A DNA stretch of 63,433 bases from an uncultured Candidatus Saccharibacteria bacterium. Its GTDB lineage: Bacteria; Patescibacteriota; Minisyncoccia; Phycocordibacterales; JACOZG01. Made by a program: the position numbers and the translations under genes. The notes beneath the pieces are model-generated. The model had not been told where the DNA came from, made no database searches, and was given only the letters and a program-made list of their open reading frames with translations. Where the stretch lies: NCBI GenBank assembly GCA_964360815.1, contig CAYHYA010000003.1:1-63433 (forward strand), written 5' to 3'. Positions 137 through 3,782 of the stretch are shown piece by piece (the first letter of the stretch is position 1; each line of letters begins with the position of its first letter).

Positions 137-610
137 TCAATTAAAATTTTTCCAGAAAATGTCGGTGATTTTCCTCACCGGCTGACCGTTATTTTCGCCA
201 TAGGTGTAATGATGTTTCTGGGGTGTTCTGGTTTTGGCATTGTTGCTGACGGCTAGAGCATCCCCGAGATAAAAGCCGAGGTGTTTGTGCGCTTCACCGC
301 GCTCGTCAACTTTTTCCTCCCATACCACCACTGCACCTTTTTCCAGTTCGGCGGTTTTTTGCCAGCCGTGTTCCGCCATGTCCTTAAGCGTACTCGCGAC
401 CGTGCCGTGGACACGGCCGATTTGGTCAAACATTTTCAAGATTGACGAGACGAAGAAGGCGCACGACAGGTCGCCATCGCGCATGAGGTCTTGCTGGGTT
501 CCGTTGACCAGCGCGTACATTGTCCGAAACAGGTTTGCACCAACGGCATTATTGATTACCGCCAGATAAGTCTCGTAGAGTTGAGGAACAACTTTTTCTT
601 TTTCGCTCAT
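137..610 (-). CDS. hypothetical protein, possible papain-like cysteine peptidase/amidase fold
   Basis: 157-aa ORF. A candidate catalytic Cys (DLSCAFFVSSIL) precedes a His (HLGFYLGD), in the non-permuted order typical of NlpC/P60- or C39-like enzymes. It lies upstream of, and in the same orientation as, two envelope-protein genes. The functional call is weak. Confidence 0.55.
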   Translation of the reverse strand: MSEKEKVVPQLYETYLAVINNAVGANLFRTMYALVNGTQQDLMRDGDLSCAFFVSSILKMFDQIGRVHGTVASTLKDMAEHGWQKTAELEKGAVVVWEEKVDERGEAHKHLGFYLGDALAVSNNAKTRTPQKHHYTYGENNGQPVRKITDIFWKNFN

Positions 611-620
611 GTATTAGGGC

Positions 621-1280
621 TCACTTATACTCTCTAATTTCTACAACCACGGACGAGACATTCAAACGTTGGTGTTCCTGACCCCTTGTTGGTAAAAAGT
701 AAAAGGAGTATAGACCTTCTTCGCCAACAAAAGAATAATCCGTAAGCCGTCTCTCGCTAATGCTACTTATTTTGCGTTCGCGCGAAACATGCCCCCCCGA
801 TCTTAAGGGAATGATCTGTTTATATTCACCGCTAGGATACTTGAATTGGAAATTGTAGTTCGGTAGTATCGCAGGGTTTGCGCCGCCTTCAAAAAAACTG
901 TAGCCCAGATCTAAAAGTATCGTATAGCGATGACTATTATCCAAAACCAAATCATCGGGCACCTTAAAGTTTCCGGTGAAGTTACCGGCATTATCTCTTT
1001 GTAAATTAAAACTATAAATTGTCCGAGAAAGGAAAAACCCTCTTCCCATAAAAATACTGACACCGCCAACCAGTAAAAGAATGATCATAAGACCGTAAGG
1101 GAATTTTTTTCCACCAGCCAATCTACCAAAAAGGAGAGACAACGAAAGACTTACAAAAAATAAACCAATAATAATTGGAGTCAGGTCTTTTAAAACGAAG
1201 ATGCCAACAAAAACGCCGATGAAAGACAGTATCGAAATAACCCCAAAAGTTGACCTAATTAAGGAACAGACCCTAATCAT
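621..1280 (-). CDS. hypothetical membrane protein
   Basis: 219-aa ORF. The N-terminal half is hydrophobic with 3-4 predicted TM helices; a soluble C-terminal domain follows. It sits 10 nt downstream of the CARDB protein gene on the same strand, suggesting an operon. Confidence 0.6.
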   Translation of the reverse strand: MIRVCSLIRSTFGVISILSFIGVFVGIFVLKDLTPIIIGLFFVSLSLSLLFGRLAGGKKFPYGLMIILLLVGGVSIFMGRGFFLSRTIYSFNLQRDNAGNFTGNFKVPDDLVLDNSHRYTILLDLGYSFFEGGANPAILPNYNFQFKYPSGEYKQIIPLRSGGHVSRERKISSISERRLTDYSFVGEEGLYSFYFLPTRGQEHQRLNVSSVVVEIREYK

Positions 1281-1289
1281 CTTATTTAA

Positions 1290-2177
1290 CTACGGAACAA
1301 AGTTTATGACCTGATCGATTGCGTTGTTCCCCTCATTACTTTCCGTTATTTTATTATCGTAATCTAGCTCAAAATGGACATTCTTGGGGCCAGGAGAATT
1401 ATCATCAGACAAGAGTAAATAACCGGAATAGGAAATAGTGAATCGTTTGGTCTCACCGGGGTTAATGGTGCCGGCAAATGATCCGGTTTGCTGGTGAGCG
1501 GGATTGGTGCCGATCAAAGCTTTGGTGTTGGCCGAACCAGTAAAAACTTTTGTCCCATTGTTGATAAATCTTGCCTCGATTTTGACAGTCCTATCACCAG
1601 CCTTGGGCGGACTGGGGATAATCTGGATGTCCAAAACTTTCAAATCAACGTAACCACTGGCCGCCGCGGGATTATTTCCTTGGCTTGGTTGAGAAGGTTC
1701 ACCTAACATTTTTTGCATCGTGGCGGGAAAATCGAGCTTCCATGTGCCGGCTTCGTTTGAGAAAACGTAGTAACCCCGTTCAATGTCGCCGTCCTCATCC
1801 GTGCAGTTGCCGACGATAACGATGCGGCCGCTCTCTTCAGTTTCACTCAAATAAGACATACTCTCACAACGGAGACTAAAACCAGGGGTGGAGAGTATCT
1901 GTTGCGAACTAGCCGTAAAGTATTGGGCGAGACTAGCTAACGGCAAATTTTGTTCCACGCCCAGTTTAATCTTGTCGAAAGTCAGCTTGGCCCCGCTTGC
2001 TAGGTTCACCGGTGTCGGTGCGGGCTGATTACTGGTCGGGGCCGTTTCATCTGCTGGTAAATTAGTGTCGGGCGGTGGCGTATCAACCTGACCATTTTGC
2101 CAATAGTAAAAGCCACCGCTAGCGGTGGCTAAAACTACAAGTAGAATAATTATCAGAGCGACGCTACCTTTTTGCAT
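1290..2177 (-). CDS. membrane-anchored protein with C-terminal CARDB-like domain
   Basis: 295 aa with an N-terminal signal/TM segment (ALIIILLVVLATASGGF) and a Pro/Thr-rich linker. The C-terminus carries CARDB-type motifs (GDRTVKIEARFINNGTK ... NEGNNAIDQVINFV). Confidence 0.7.
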   Translation of the reverse strand: MQKGSVALIIILLVVLATASGGFYYWQNGQVDTPPPDTNLPADETAPTSNQPAPTPVNLASGAKLTFDKIKLGVEQNLPLASLAQYFTASSQQILSTPGFSLRCESMSYLSETEESGRIVIVGNCTDEDGDIERGYYVFSNEAGTWKLDFPATMQKMLGEPSQPSQGNNPAAASGYVDLKVLDIQIIPSPPKAGDRTVKIEARFINNGTKVFTGSANTKALIGTNPAHQQTGSFAGTINPGETKRFTISYSGYLLLSDDNSPGPKNVHFELDYDNKITESNEGNNAIDQVINFVP

Positions 2178-2321
2178 ATTATTTTCTAGTTAATTGATTA
2201 ATAATCTTGAGTAACTCTCCCACGATCTTACTAGTCATTGTATCCAAAATTAAATCGTAAATCCACTGCTGGGAAGTATTTGGAAGTCCGACTTCCAAGT
2301 TTTAGGGATTTCTCTATTTTT

Positions 2322-2392
2322 TGGACCTGCGGGGAATCGGACCCCGACCTCATCCATGCCATGGACGCGTAATACCATTTTACTACAGGCCC
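2322..2392 (-). tRNA. tRNA-Ala-like (anticodon GGC), atypical T-loop
   Basis: Reverse complement is GGGCCTG-TA-GTAA-AATGGTA-TTAC-G-CGTCC-ATGGCAT-GGATG-AGGT-CGGGG-TCCGATT-CCCCG-CAGGTCC-A. The cloverleaf is complete, with a G-U pair in the acceptor stem and anticodon GGC. The T-loop reads TCCGATT instead of the TTCRANY consensus (C at position 55), so it may be a diverged or pseudo-tRNA. Confidence 0.5.
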
Positions 2393-2396
2393 GCGC
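2368..2396. repeat. 29-bp perfect direct repeat, copy 1 (tRNA-Ala 5' 25 nt plus 4 nt upstream)
   Basis: cgtaataccattttactacaggcccgcgc is identical at 2368-2396 and 2695-2723. It corresponds to the acceptor 5' strand, D-arm and position 26 of the tRNA-Ala-like gene. Confidence 0.85.
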
Positions 2397-2655
2397 TTGT
2401 TGTTTTTATTTCACCGTCTTCAATTATTCTTTTGATCAAGGATCGGTTCTTCCAACGTTTCAATTTTAATTCCATCTTTCGGGCTTCTGTCGAGGTGGAA
2501 TATCTTTGACATAAAACAATCTCTAGAGGCACAAGATATTTCAGAGATTTTGTCTTGCCGGCATTATGCTCGACGATTCTTCGTGTCGGATCGTTACTGG
2601 ATCCAATGTAGTAACGACCATTCTTTTTGCTCTGTGCGATATAAAGATAACACAT
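2383..2655 (-). CDS. GIY-YIG domain nuclease (small free-standing GIY-YIG protein)
   Basis: 90-aa ORF carrying the GIY-YIG core (MCYLYIAQSKKNGRYYIGSSNDPTRRIVEHN). Its 3' end overlaps the 5' end of the tRNA-Ala-like gene by 10 nt. The ORF is flanked by 29-bp perfect direct repeats. Confidence 0.7.
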   Translation of the reverse strand: MCYLYIAQSKKNGRYYIGSSNDPTRRIVEHNAGKTKSLKYLVPLEIVLCQRYSTSTEARKMELKLKRWKNRSLIKRIIEDGEIKTTSAGL

Positions 2656-2694
2656 CTTTTGTCTTTTACCCGACCTTCCCGATGACCATCGGGA

Positions 2695-2723
2695 CGTAAT
2701 ACCATTTTACTACAGGCCCGCGC
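2695..2723. repeat. 29-bp perfect direct repeat, copy 2 (partial pseudo-tRNA copy)
   Basis: Identical to 2368-2396. Read on the minus strand it continues into a degenerate anticodon arm (TCCCG-ATGGTCAT-CGGGA) and a variable-loop/T-stem start (AGGTCGGGT), after which tRNA similarity is lost. This looks like a truncated paralogous tRNA remnant. Confidence 0.8.
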
Positions 2724-2830
2724 TGATTTGGAAAAGATAACATAAGTTTCTCCAAACAAAAAGATCGTCCCGGTGTACACTGGGACGATCGGATTCAACC
2801 CTCTAGATAATCTCACGCAAACACCTAAAC

Positions 2831-3145
2831 CTAAACACTAATCGCGGCTGTTTCAGGGTGAGAAAGTTCTTTTTGTTGGCCCCTAGTGATTTTAGCCACG
2901 ATCGTCACCGTCTGTTCGGTCTGGTTGGTCGTCAGTCGTCGTGAGTCTTCTGATAACAACAGGTCTAATGTTGTTTGCTCATTGTCAACTGTGCCGGAGA
3001 TGGCGATTCGCACAAGTTCACGAGTCTTCACCCACTCCAAAAGAGTCCTCACGACAAAACCATCATCAATGTCTTCGATTGGAAGACTGCTTTGTCCATG
3101 GTTATCAGTTTTTCTAACGCTCACACCACATGGTTCAATCTTCAT
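2831..3145 (-). CDS. hypothetical protein
   Basis: 104-aa ORF with a strong Shine-Dalgarno sequence (AGGAGG, 7 nt before the ATG). No recognisable motif. Confidence 0.6.
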   Translation of the reverse strand: MKIEPCGVSVRKTDNHGQSSLPIEDIDDGFVVRTLLEWVKTRELVRIAISGTVDNEQTTLDLLLSEDSRRLTTNQTEQTVTIVAKITRGQQKELSHPETAAISV

Positions 3146-3464
3146 GGCAACTCCTCCTTATTGCTTATTGATTGCCTCGTGAGGCTTTTCGACCCCGGTC
3201 GAAATCCATTCCATGGCGGATTCTATCACCCTCCTTCACAAAAGACCAGTTTTAACCAACGCGACCACATTCGTACCACGACAAAGAATTAAAGTAAGGG
3301 CTAAAAAGAAAAAGCCCCCGATGCAGACGGATCTGCGCAAGGGTCTTTTACATGGTGATGTGGCCATTATATCACCGCCACCGGTGGCGGTGGCAGATTT
3401 AGAATTTCAAAAGAAAAAAGGCGGCCATTGCTGGTCGCCCGGTGTGCCCCTGCCATTCTCCGGA

Positions 3465-3782
3465 TTAGTCGTCGTCGCTTGTGGCCCAAATCAGAAATGC
3501 CAGGAAGAGGAAAGAACCCGTTGCGATACCGGCACCAGTCATCGCATCTAGTATGGGACCTTTAAATACTCCATCTAGGAATAGAAAACTACCACCAATA
3601 AATCCAAGAGTTGCAACGATTGTCAGAGCAACAAAAGTCAGGGAAAGAGCAATCACACCGCATGTCTTCAGGTAGTCAATTACATAATCCATACACCCAA
3701 TACCTTTCGTAAAAGACCTTGGTTTATTCCAAAATCCCAACCCCATTCCTACCATGTTTTCTAAAATTTTGCTACCCTTCAC
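3465..3782 (-). CDS. small hypothetical membrane protein
   Basis: 105-aa ORF with two hydrophobic helices and an acidic C-terminus (SDDD). It is divergent from ychF. Confidence 0.5.
   Translation of the reverse strand: MKGSKILENMVGMGLGFWNKPRSFTKGIGCMDYVIDYLKTCGVIALSLTFVALTIVATLGFIGGSFLFLDGVFKGPILDAMTGAGIATGSFLFLAFLIWATSDDD

Follow-up and report, generated by a model that had tools for sequence, protein, structure and literature searches.

The 63,433-nt stretch of DNA analysed here (hereafter the window; positions 1 to 63,433 of contig CAYHYA010000003.1, assembly GCA_964360815.1, from an uncultured Candidatus Saccharibacteria bacterium) carries a small nuclease gene set between two versions of one tRNA gene. 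In minus-strand order, a terminator-like hairpin is followed by a 38-nt spacer, the pentanucleotide AGCGC, a 25-nt tRNA 5' end, a palindrome, the segment AGGTCGGG, a leader, an open reading frame (ORF) and a complete tRNA gene. Three of these parts make up what we call the cassette: a disabled 5' tRNA copy with its palindrome, a gene for a 90-aa nuclease of the GIY-YIG superfamily, and an intact tRNA-Ala(GGC). The features of the locus, with the evidence for each, are as follows.

2322-2392, minus strand: intact tRNA-Ala(GGC) gene, 71 nt (ARAGORN; Rfam RF00005, 57 bits against a cut-off of 29)
2383-2655, minus strand: ORF for a minimal GIY-YIG nuclease, 90 aa (ORF list; Pfam PF01541, E 3.5e-14)
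2656-2668, minus strand: A-rich leader TAAAAGACAAAAG, 13 nt, running from the pseudo-tRNA to the ATG (sequence)
2669-2676, minus strand: AGGTCGGG, variable loop and 5' strand of the T-stem of the disabled tRNA copy (sequence comparison)
2677-2694, no strand assigned: GC-rich palindrome TCCCGATGGTCATCGGGA, 18 nt, with a 7-bp stem and a 4-nt loop (palindrome scan)
2695-2719, minus strand: 5' part of the disabled tRNA, comprising the acceptor 5' strand, the D-arm and position 26 (repeat finder, pattern search)
2720-2724, minus strand: AGCGC flank, 5 nt, within the perfect repeat (sequence)
2753-2790, minus strand: hairpin and T-run, candidate terminator (inverted repeat GATCGTCCCAGTGT/ACACCGGGACGATC, then TTTTTGTTT)

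The gene calls in a preliminary description of this locus, made from the letters and an ORF list, were borne out by independent tools. Both tRNA searches recognise the intact tRNA-Ala(GGC), which carries the G3:U70 alanine identity pair, and the Pfam profile confirms the GIY-YIG ORF. The overlap of the two genes is likewise as described: the last 10 nt of the ORF are the first 10 nt of the tRNA, and the TAG stop codon of the ORF is U8-A9-G10 of the tRNA. Across the ORF, the 5' part of the disabled copy matches the intact gene at 25 of 25 positions. The perfect repeat between the copies had been given as 29 nt with 4 nt of flank; it exists but measures 30 nt (2368-2397 and 2695-2724), made up of tRNA nucleotides 1-25 and the 5-nt flank AGCGC, and 100 shuffles produced no match. 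At the intact copy the same AGCGC (2393-2397) consists of ORF codons. Because repeat identity runs 5 nt into a flank that is also coding, the sequence points to recent recombination or conversion between the two tRNA copies. The palindrome TCCCGATGGTCATCGGGA occupies the exact place of the anticodon arm (positions 27-43) and was found once in the window by the palindrome scan. The segment AGGTCGGG is identical to the same positions of the intact tRNA, and the ATG of the ORF lies 13 nt further on.

This arrangement recurs far beyond the window. We scanned for relatives of the nuclease with one genome per species, took the best 80 of 252 relatives, and analysed 79 loci. A same-strand tRNA gene lay within 120 nt of the ORF in 70 of the 79 (downstream in 53, upstream in 17), against a background of 0.10 tRNA genes per kb elsewhere in the same loci. 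Some 16 tRNA isoacceptors carry such cassettes, including Ala (three anticodons), Gly, Arg (five anticodons), Glu, Pro, Ser, Thr and Ile, with Asp, Met, Cys, His, Val and Phe also found beside the ORFs. The hosts comprise Patescibacteria, Bacteroidota, Margulisiibacteriota, Marinimicrobia, Ignavibacteria, Elusimicrobia and others, and the Bacteroidota include cultured isolates (Litoribacter ruber KCTC 22899, Flagellimonas beolgyonensis KCTC 23501, Polaribacter sp. MF5-112 and Marixanthotalea marina). In approximately 32 of the downstream cases the stop codon of the ORF falls inside the tRNA; overlaps of -10 and -23 recur, and the stop is typically a TAG at tRNA positions 8-10 or the TAG of the D-loop sequence GGATAG. 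A partial copy of the same tRNA was detected across the ORF in 49 of 69 loci at z >= 10 and in 58 of 69 at z >= 5. The copy is a 5' part where the intact tRNA lies downstream and a 3' part where it lies upstream. The combination of a disabled tRNA copy with a palindrome, a minimal GIY-YIG ORF and an intact tRNA is thus a widespread architecture across phyla.

The nearest homologues preserve the layout in detail. A contig from Hainich groundwater (L001) encodes an identical protein. A 70%-identical homologue (L003-L005), located by YchF as in the window, has a pseudo-tRNA, the palindrome CCCCGATGGACATCGGGG, AGGTCGGG, a leader, the ORF and tRNA-Ala(GGC) in the same order, and a 52%-identical homologue (L002) repeats the layout at tRNA-Arg(TCT) with the palindrome TCCCGATAATCGGGA and a co-duplicated upstream flank of 24 nt. 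Some tRNA clusters hold two divergent family members at different tRNAs (L029, L052, L039, L081, L031 and L068); these tRNAs are Cys and Val in L029, and Arg-TCT and His in L052.

A partial tRNA duplication is the classic footprint of an integrative element at its attachment (att) site, and as in islands and prophages mobilised by tyrosine integrases, a partial tRNA repeat here brackets foreign DNA while one intact tRNA is preserved. The preliminary description had accordingly offered a decayed integrative element as one of two explanations, and a remnant of an integrase-mediated island or prophage would account for the duplication. The remaining features of the locus make this highly improbable. 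Islands mobilised by an integrase carry kilobases of cargo, with the 3' part of the tRNA as the att repeat at their far end, whereas the repeat in the window is the 5' part of the tRNA with its upstream flank and the intact gene is distal (elsewhere in the family the repeat is a 3' part when the ORF is downstream). The cargo is 263 nt, the same single ORF of about 270 nt recurs in over 70 independent loci, the interval between the repeats encodes no integrase, and a conserved palindrome stands in place of the anticodon arm of the dead copy. An integrase-mediated island is therefore contradicted by the 5' repeat with flank and the integrase-free, ORF-only cargo. The other explanation, a free-standing insertion resembling a homing endonuclease with the partial tRNA duplication as its footprint, gained support from the same layout at about 16 isoacceptors and from the presence/absence polymorphism described below.

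GC-rich palindromes interrupt the partial tRNA copies at these loci, with a density of 4.4 per kb up to 200 nt from the ORFs and 0.78 per kb elsewhere. They differ in form. In the clade of the candidate phyla radiation (CPR) associated with Ala, Gly, Asp and Arg tRNAs, YCCCGATGNNCATCGGGR takes over the anticodon arm exactly. The palindrome of the Bacteroidota Arg clade, CCTGCCTGCCGGCAGGCAGG, interrupts the D-loop behind position 22, and elsewhere it is in the anticodon, variable or T-loop; the CPR Glu clade has two TCCGCCGAAGGCGGA units inserted behind position 35. Among 21 copies of the window-type palindrome, 98% of stem cells are paired (dyad symmetry), the outer pair covaries (UA in 11, CG in 6, AU in 1 and GC in 1), the core CCGAT..ATCGG is invariant, and none of 500 shuffles reached the observed pairing and covariation values. 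The hairpin at 2677-2694, which the preliminary description had taken for an anticodon arm with compensatory mutations, is instead a member of this family-wide palindrome, which occurs at other tRNAs too.

Nor is the upstream copy a decaying remnant, as had been proposed. Homology to the tRNA resumes after the palindrome with AGGTCGGG, and the module formed by pseudo-tRNA, palindrome and AGGTCGGG is about 90% identical between the window and L003. As this non-coding module has changed so little while synonymous sites of the adjacent ORF are saturated (see below), the disabled copy is under constraint. Its ancestry can differ from that of the adjacent gene: the D-arm of the L003 pseudo-copy (GTAAAATGGTATTAC) is of the window type and not that of L003's own tRNA (GTATAGCGGTAGAAC), and L118 has the reverse combination of D-arms in its pseudo-copy and intact copy. 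Such mosaics are compatible with co-conversion of flanking markers, though they do not prove it. In several loci, pseudo-copies of the 3' type with a palindrome lie downstream of the intact tRNA, at times in long arrays.

These observations raise the question of whether the palindrome itself is the primary mobile entity, a miniature insertion element that enters tRNA loops or takes the place of tRNA arms and for which the GIY-YIG protein would serve as the cognate nuclease, specific for structure or sequence, with the tRNA duplications as survivable by-products. Nuclease and palindrome would then form a new system of transposition or conversion. The palindromes do appear as clean insertions, in the D-loop after 22, in the anticodon loop after 35, and in the variable and T-loops. 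Two palindrome types occur within one pseudo-tRNA in L049 and L070, and in L017 and L024 the loop of one palindrome copy is the exact reverse complement of that of another. The invariant core suggests sequence-specific recognition; enzymes of the Slx1 fold cut branched and stem-loop DNA; and GIY-YIG restriction enzymes read GC-rich palindromes, as Cfr42I does with CCGC/GG (PMC2241918). Against this, the window has a single palindrome of this type, the survey of palindromes spanned about 1.5 kb around the ORFs, and a palindrome type may simply travel by inheritance with its unit. To our knowledge, no GIY-YIG DNA transposase is known. On balance we regard a palindrome-led element as distinctly unlikely, and return below to its standing beside the other explanations.

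The predicted protein belongs squarely to the GIY-YIG superfamily (PF01541, 53 bits against a cut-off of 22.6), which is defined by the GIY and YIG motifs, a conserved Arg and a metal-binding Glu on a beta-beta-alpha-alpha-beta-alpha core. Y5, Y16-I17-G18, R26, H30 and E62 are invariant or nearly so, and at least 97% of 86 family ORFs retain the catalytic residues Y5, Y16, G18, R26, H30, N31, E62 and K66. The signature of the subfamily is EHNAGKTKS. An AlphaFold model (mean confidence score, pLDDT, of 87) places strands at residues 2-9, 15-20 and 44-52 and helices at 23-31, 55-68 and 71-80. A profile search of the PDB retrieved 1ywl (EF2693) at 1e-12, 1zg2 (BH0048) at 8.6e-12 and SLX1 at 1e-5 to 1e-3, with no UvrC or I-TevI match at E <= 0.01. 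Foldseek ranked 1zg2 first for the model and then Slx1 (root-mean-square deviation of 2.1 Å over 72 columns), with I-TevI reached only at E 0.9. YhbQ of Escherichia coli is a full-length homologue (26% identity, hhalign probability 94.5%), and the window protein shares, over its full length, the minimal GIY-YIG domain of YhbQ, 1ywl, 1zg2 and Slx1. With 90 aa the protein consists of the catalytic domain alone and has no C-terminal DNA-binding domain of the Seg/I-TevI type. A survey of the superfamily gives a C-terminal catalytic Asn, absent from the Slx1/UPF0213 clade, as typical of the UvrC/I-TevI lineage, and treats bacterial Slx1-like proteins as vertically inherited repair enzymes (PMC1564403). 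By the profile and fold comparisons we classify the protein as a minimal nuclease of the Slx1/UPF0213(YhbQ) type, a clade of stand-alone domains of about 90-100 aa, and not of the I-TevI/Seg type.

Between the window and L003 the ORFs differ at a proportion of 0.195 of nonsynonymous sites (pN) and 0.734 of synonymous sites (pS), the latter being saturated, for a nonsynonymous to synonymous rate ratio (dN/dS) of about 0.08. This pattern indicates purifying selection on the ORF, and together with the conserved catalytic residues makes the nuclease look active. A profile of the family collects 4,277 clusters (at 50% identity) at E <= 1e-10. In a neighbour-joining tree the ORFs cluster by tRNA type and host. 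Within clades the associated tRNA changes (Ala to Gly, Asp or Arg-TCT; Arg to Met), as does the arrangement (upstream to downstream).

Group I introns are found in tRNA genes of bacteria, and introns often encode GIY-YIG enzymes. An intron-encoded homing endonuclease in a tRNA gene would be a further explanation, and the preliminary description had asked whether close homologues are intron- or intein-associated. The nearest solved relatives are UPF0213 proteins and Slx1, and TIGR01453, the profile for group I intron endonucleases, scores 19.3 bits against a cut-off of 56 and aligns with residues 4-38 only. Rfam detects no ribozyme at E <= 10 in 1500-3500, where it finds the tRNA alone besides the sub-threshold 'L20 leader' match discussed below; the ORF fills the interval, and a complete, uninterrupted tRNA stands beside it. 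A group I intron is contradicted by the sequence, and we assign this explanation a negligible probability.

Other assignments also failed. For a defence system, the sole PADLOC match was PDC-S14, at E 0.02 and 12 bits. For a phage origin, a scan of viral contigs gave four weak relatives, none of them by a tRNA, and the PHROG homing-endonuclease matches cover only the N-terminal motif (residues 1-33).

We looked for presence/absence polymorphism among metagenomic tRNA-Ala(GGC) genes with the window-type D-arm, counting as empty any locus with at least 450 nt of upstream sequence lacking a GIY-YIG ORF. The 120 loci obtained comprised 7 occupied, 94 empty and 19 too short to judge, an occupancy of about 7%, and partial tRNA copies were almost restricted to the occupied loci. 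The clearest comparison is an orthologous pair, L117 (occupied) and L131 (empty), which are 69% identical in the upstream flank and 92% identical in the tRNA and differ by about 340 nt; in L117 the -10 box of the tRNA promoter is kept 5' of the tRNA fragment.

Degenerate and amplified versions also occur. L194 and L137 keep the pseudo-tRNA, palindrome and leader with the ORF gone, and three family ORFs (L045, L048 and L074) contain in-frame stops indicative of pseudogenes. In the complete chromosome OY970181.1 (L017, 1794-2960), 12.4 tandem copies of a 94-nt unit, 98% identical, lie directly 3' of an intact tRNA-Ala(GGC); each unit consists of tRNA positions 44-76, a terminator, a 3' piece of the D-arm and the palindrome. 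Tandem arrays of pseudo-tRNA with palindrome plus GIY-YIG ORF are found in L015 (593-1746) and L083 (1387-1800), the former with three ORFs and with palindromes whose loops contain long, nested, AT-rich inserts. In L198 (3280-3331), a palindrome-less 5' fragment of tRNA-Ala with a third D-arm allele lies just upstream of an otherwise empty tRNA-Ala(GGC), and may be an older scar. Recent horizontal transfer, which would appear as near-identical ORFs within divergent flanks, was seen in no pair examined: near-identical ORFs belonged wholly to the same lineage (L040/L047, L057/L072 and L032/L033) or the pairs were too divergent to decide.

With moderate confidence, we favour the interpretation that the locus is a copy of a selfish, homing-type nuclease cassette residing inside a tRNA-gene duplication; its DNA cleavage and its mobility are properties that we infer. 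Recurrence at many tRNA genes, polymorphism, remnants, pseudogenes, arrays, mosaic D-arm alleles, switches within clades and the low GC content of the ORF (39.9%, the 2.8th percentile of the contig) all fit a selfish element that spreads, or at least rearranges, through break-induced recombination guided by homology between tRNA sequences. In the mechanism we propose, the intact tRNA-Ala(GGC) would keep the host viable while lending the ORF its stop codon. Transcription would start at the tRNA promoter left 5' of the disabled copy and yield pseudo-tRNA, mRNA and tRNA together; by cutting at tRNA +1, RNase P would then take the stop codon off the message and hold nuclease expression low. The nuclease would break DNA in or beside the cognate tRNA gene, its target being either a hairpin or cruciform, as for Slx1, or the T-loop or anticodon region, as for SegB. 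Recombinational repair using the tRNA-derived repeats as homology arms would copy the cassette into element-free alleles, and the same repair in cis would generate duplications, arrays and deletions. The palindrome may serve to remove the target from the dead copy and to interrupt the homology of the repeat, or it may be the binding or cleavage site of the nuclease itself.

The closest known and best experimentally characterised analogue of such a cassette is SegB, a phage protein of about 200 aa or more whose C-terminal part is a DNA-binding region. In T4- and T6-like phages this GIY-YIG enzyme is encoded in tRNA clusters, cuts tRNA genes at their T-psi-C stem-loop motif and homes with the flanking tRNA; it drives recombination-dependent tandem amplification of segments containing tRNA genes and segB, and a C-terminally truncated variant has been described (PMC2330249, PMC13096335). 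In both systems a GIY-YIG nuclease gene is embedded among tRNA genes; in the Ala/Gly clade of the present family, tandem arrays occur and the ORF begins at the point where the pseudo-tRNA enters its T-loop. The systems differ in that SegB is a phage enzyme of the I-TevI/Seg type with its C-terminal part, whereas the window encodes a 90-aa catalytic domain of the Slx1/UPF0213 type on a bacterial chromosome, accompanied by a disabled copy of the same tRNA with a conserved palindrome and ending in a stop codon borrowed from the tRNA.

Several points weigh against a selfish cassette. As the protein has no DNA-binding domain, specific recognition of one tRNA gene is unexplained, and the intact tRNA copy would stay a target. 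The window contains one copy of the cassette, and relatives are almost absent from viral contigs. Neither BLAST of the flanks against the 120 metagenome loci, which returned YchF homologues without tRNA synteny, nor homologues of neighbouring genes, those of the downstream CARDB-like gene (P0012 and P0013) lying in other contexts without a tRNA, revealed an empty allele exactly syntenic with the window. Finally, since the window and L003 are both located by YchF and their synonymous sites are saturated, the window copy has long been inherited vertically, and the strong conservation of pseudo-tRNA and palindrome could mean a host-level or regulatory function.

These last points lead to a different explanation, in which the module is domesticated or beneficial to the host: a vertically inherited accessory operon, co-transcribed with the tRNA and patchy through frequent loss, with possible roles in maintenance or amplification of tRNA genes, in resolving transcription-replication conflicts at tRNA genes, or at the RNA level. 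Strong purifying selection, the conserved active site, continued occupancy of the YchF locus in the window and L003 despite saturated synonymous divergence, and a pseudo-tRNA and palindrome conserved like a functional element are consistent with such a role. The literature places the family among repair proteins passed on vertically and records a fusion with a TrmH-like tRNA methyltransferase (PMC1564403); the annotation of E. coli YhbQ is that of a DNA damage response nuclease; and the tRNA amplification driven by SegB benefits its phage. In the opposite direction, occupancy of the tRNA type is only about 7%, the cassettes occupy about 16 isoacceptors and change tRNA within protein clades, some copies are pseudogenised, lack the ORF or carry mosaic alleles, a dead tRNA fragment for every insertion is hard to view as adaptive, and no defence family matches the protein. 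Canonical YhbQ has no tRNA neighbour, whereas members of the window subfamily are patchily distributed, adjoin tRNA genes and lie between tRNA duplicates. We therefore judge a host module unlikely, and keep it, together with a palindrome-led element, as a live rival to the selfish cassette.

The preliminary description had itself named a pair of findings that would together speak against an insertion, namely an ancient fixed arrangement of the tRNA pair in related genomes and a conserved housekeeping protein of the UPF0213/YhbQ type. The protein is indeed of the UPF0213/YhbQ/Slx1 type, and L003 shows the same arrangement by YchF; it is, however, patchy and not a universally conserved housekeeping protein, and presence/absence polymorphism exists, so that the two findings do not hold jointly.

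How a selfish cassette could find its target might be illustrated by Eco29kI and Cfr42I, type II restriction enzymes that are paired with methyltransferases, although no methyltransferase is present at the window locus. They are small GIY-YIG enzymes without a separate DNA-binding domain that act as oligomers on short GC-rich palindromes (CCGC/GG; PMC2241918), and they offer a possible model for recognition of the CCGAT..ATCGG palindrome. GIY-YIG restriction enzymes are larger, with insertions and extensions of the core, and belong to another GIY-YIG lineage (PMC1564403). A broader proposal, possible though in our estimation doubtful, is that mini-nucleases of the Slx1/YhbQ type include a very large, unrecognised mobile class that colonises tRNA genes with cognate palindromes through structure-guided homing or transposition. 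The 90-aa enzyme would then recognise or resolve the palindrome or a tRNA-gene hairpin. Breaks made in this way would cause the cassette to be copied, palindromes to replace tRNA arms and tRNA segments to be amplified in tandem, a new mechanism by which tRNA genes would be remodelled in many phyla.

The immediate surroundings of the cassette contain further features. The hairpin at 2753-2790 is likely, from its inverted repeat and T-run, to be the intrinsic terminator of an upstream 104-aa ORF (2831-3145), although the terminator scan did not list it; it is also likely to form the upstream boundary of the element's transcription unit, outside the element itself. An Rfam match to the 'L20 leader' (2751-2880) scored 25 bits against a cut-off of 58.7, and we regard it as probably chance because it is far under the cut-off and overlaps the terminator hairpin. 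Upstream of the pseudo-tRNA, a consensus scan gave no sigma-70 promoter. The 13-nt leader (2656-2668) shows no visible Shine-Dalgarno sequence, and comparable A/T-rich leaders occur at homologous loci. Folding of the whole 5' leader RNA gave a z-score of only -1.4, with support for the palindrome and D-arm hairpin alone. The segment ATGTTATCTTT (2733-2749), just 5' of the pseudo-tRNA, resembles the start of the ORF, ATGTGTTATCTTT (2643-2659), with 82% identity over 17 nt, which may be chance or a relic of an older tandem ORF-tRNA unit. The element sits among genes of lower GC content at third codon positions (GC3 0.39-0.49; window 600-3200), near YchF, PfkB and aldolase genes (GC3 0.55-0.67), and the nearest named homologue of its downstream neighbour is from Candidatus Vogelbacteria. 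Together with the Hainich contig that encodes the identical protein, this homologue makes a Patescibacteria (CPR) genome the most likely source.

The T-loop of the intact tRNA-Ala(GGC), UCCGAUU (window 2334-2340), has the C55 (GTCCGATTC) that the preliminary description had singled out as unusual. The same GTCCGA loop is present in CPR tRNAs of several isoacceptors (L016, L025, L035, L038, L046, L080 and L137); it is a trait of the CPR lineage and no defect of the window tRNA gene.

The proximity of coding and tRNA sequence also affects annotation. In the window, a spurious 91-aa ORF (2541-2816, minus strand) runs through the pseudo-tRNA, and database homologues (P0003 and P0004) carry an N-terminal extension beginning MVLRPDGHRGGR or a C-terminal one ending VTRVHGMDESGVRLPAGPPS, which are translated pseudo-tRNA or tRNA. 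Such extensions are a systematic gene-calling artefact for this nuclease family.

Full-text literature searches, outside whose range subscription-only papers lay, yielded no description of chromosomal minimal GIY-YIG genes inside tRNA duplications. That free-standing nuclease genes exploit tRNA genes is already known; there is a real chance that the mechanism here is new. If our interpretation is correct, a family filed as small repair nucleases would hold thousands of selfish elements parasitising tRNA genes in Patescibacteria, Bacteroidota and other phyla, and these would account for many cases of orphan tRNA fragments, of assemblies broken at tRNA genes and of ORFs wrongly called through tRNA sequence. 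The question would then be how a 90-aa domain without a DNA-binding module locates one tRNA gene or palindrome, and because the carriers include cultured Bacteroidota, the idea is directly testable. The SegB paradigm of homing coupled to tRNA gene amplification would, in that case, reach from phages to cellular chromosomes.

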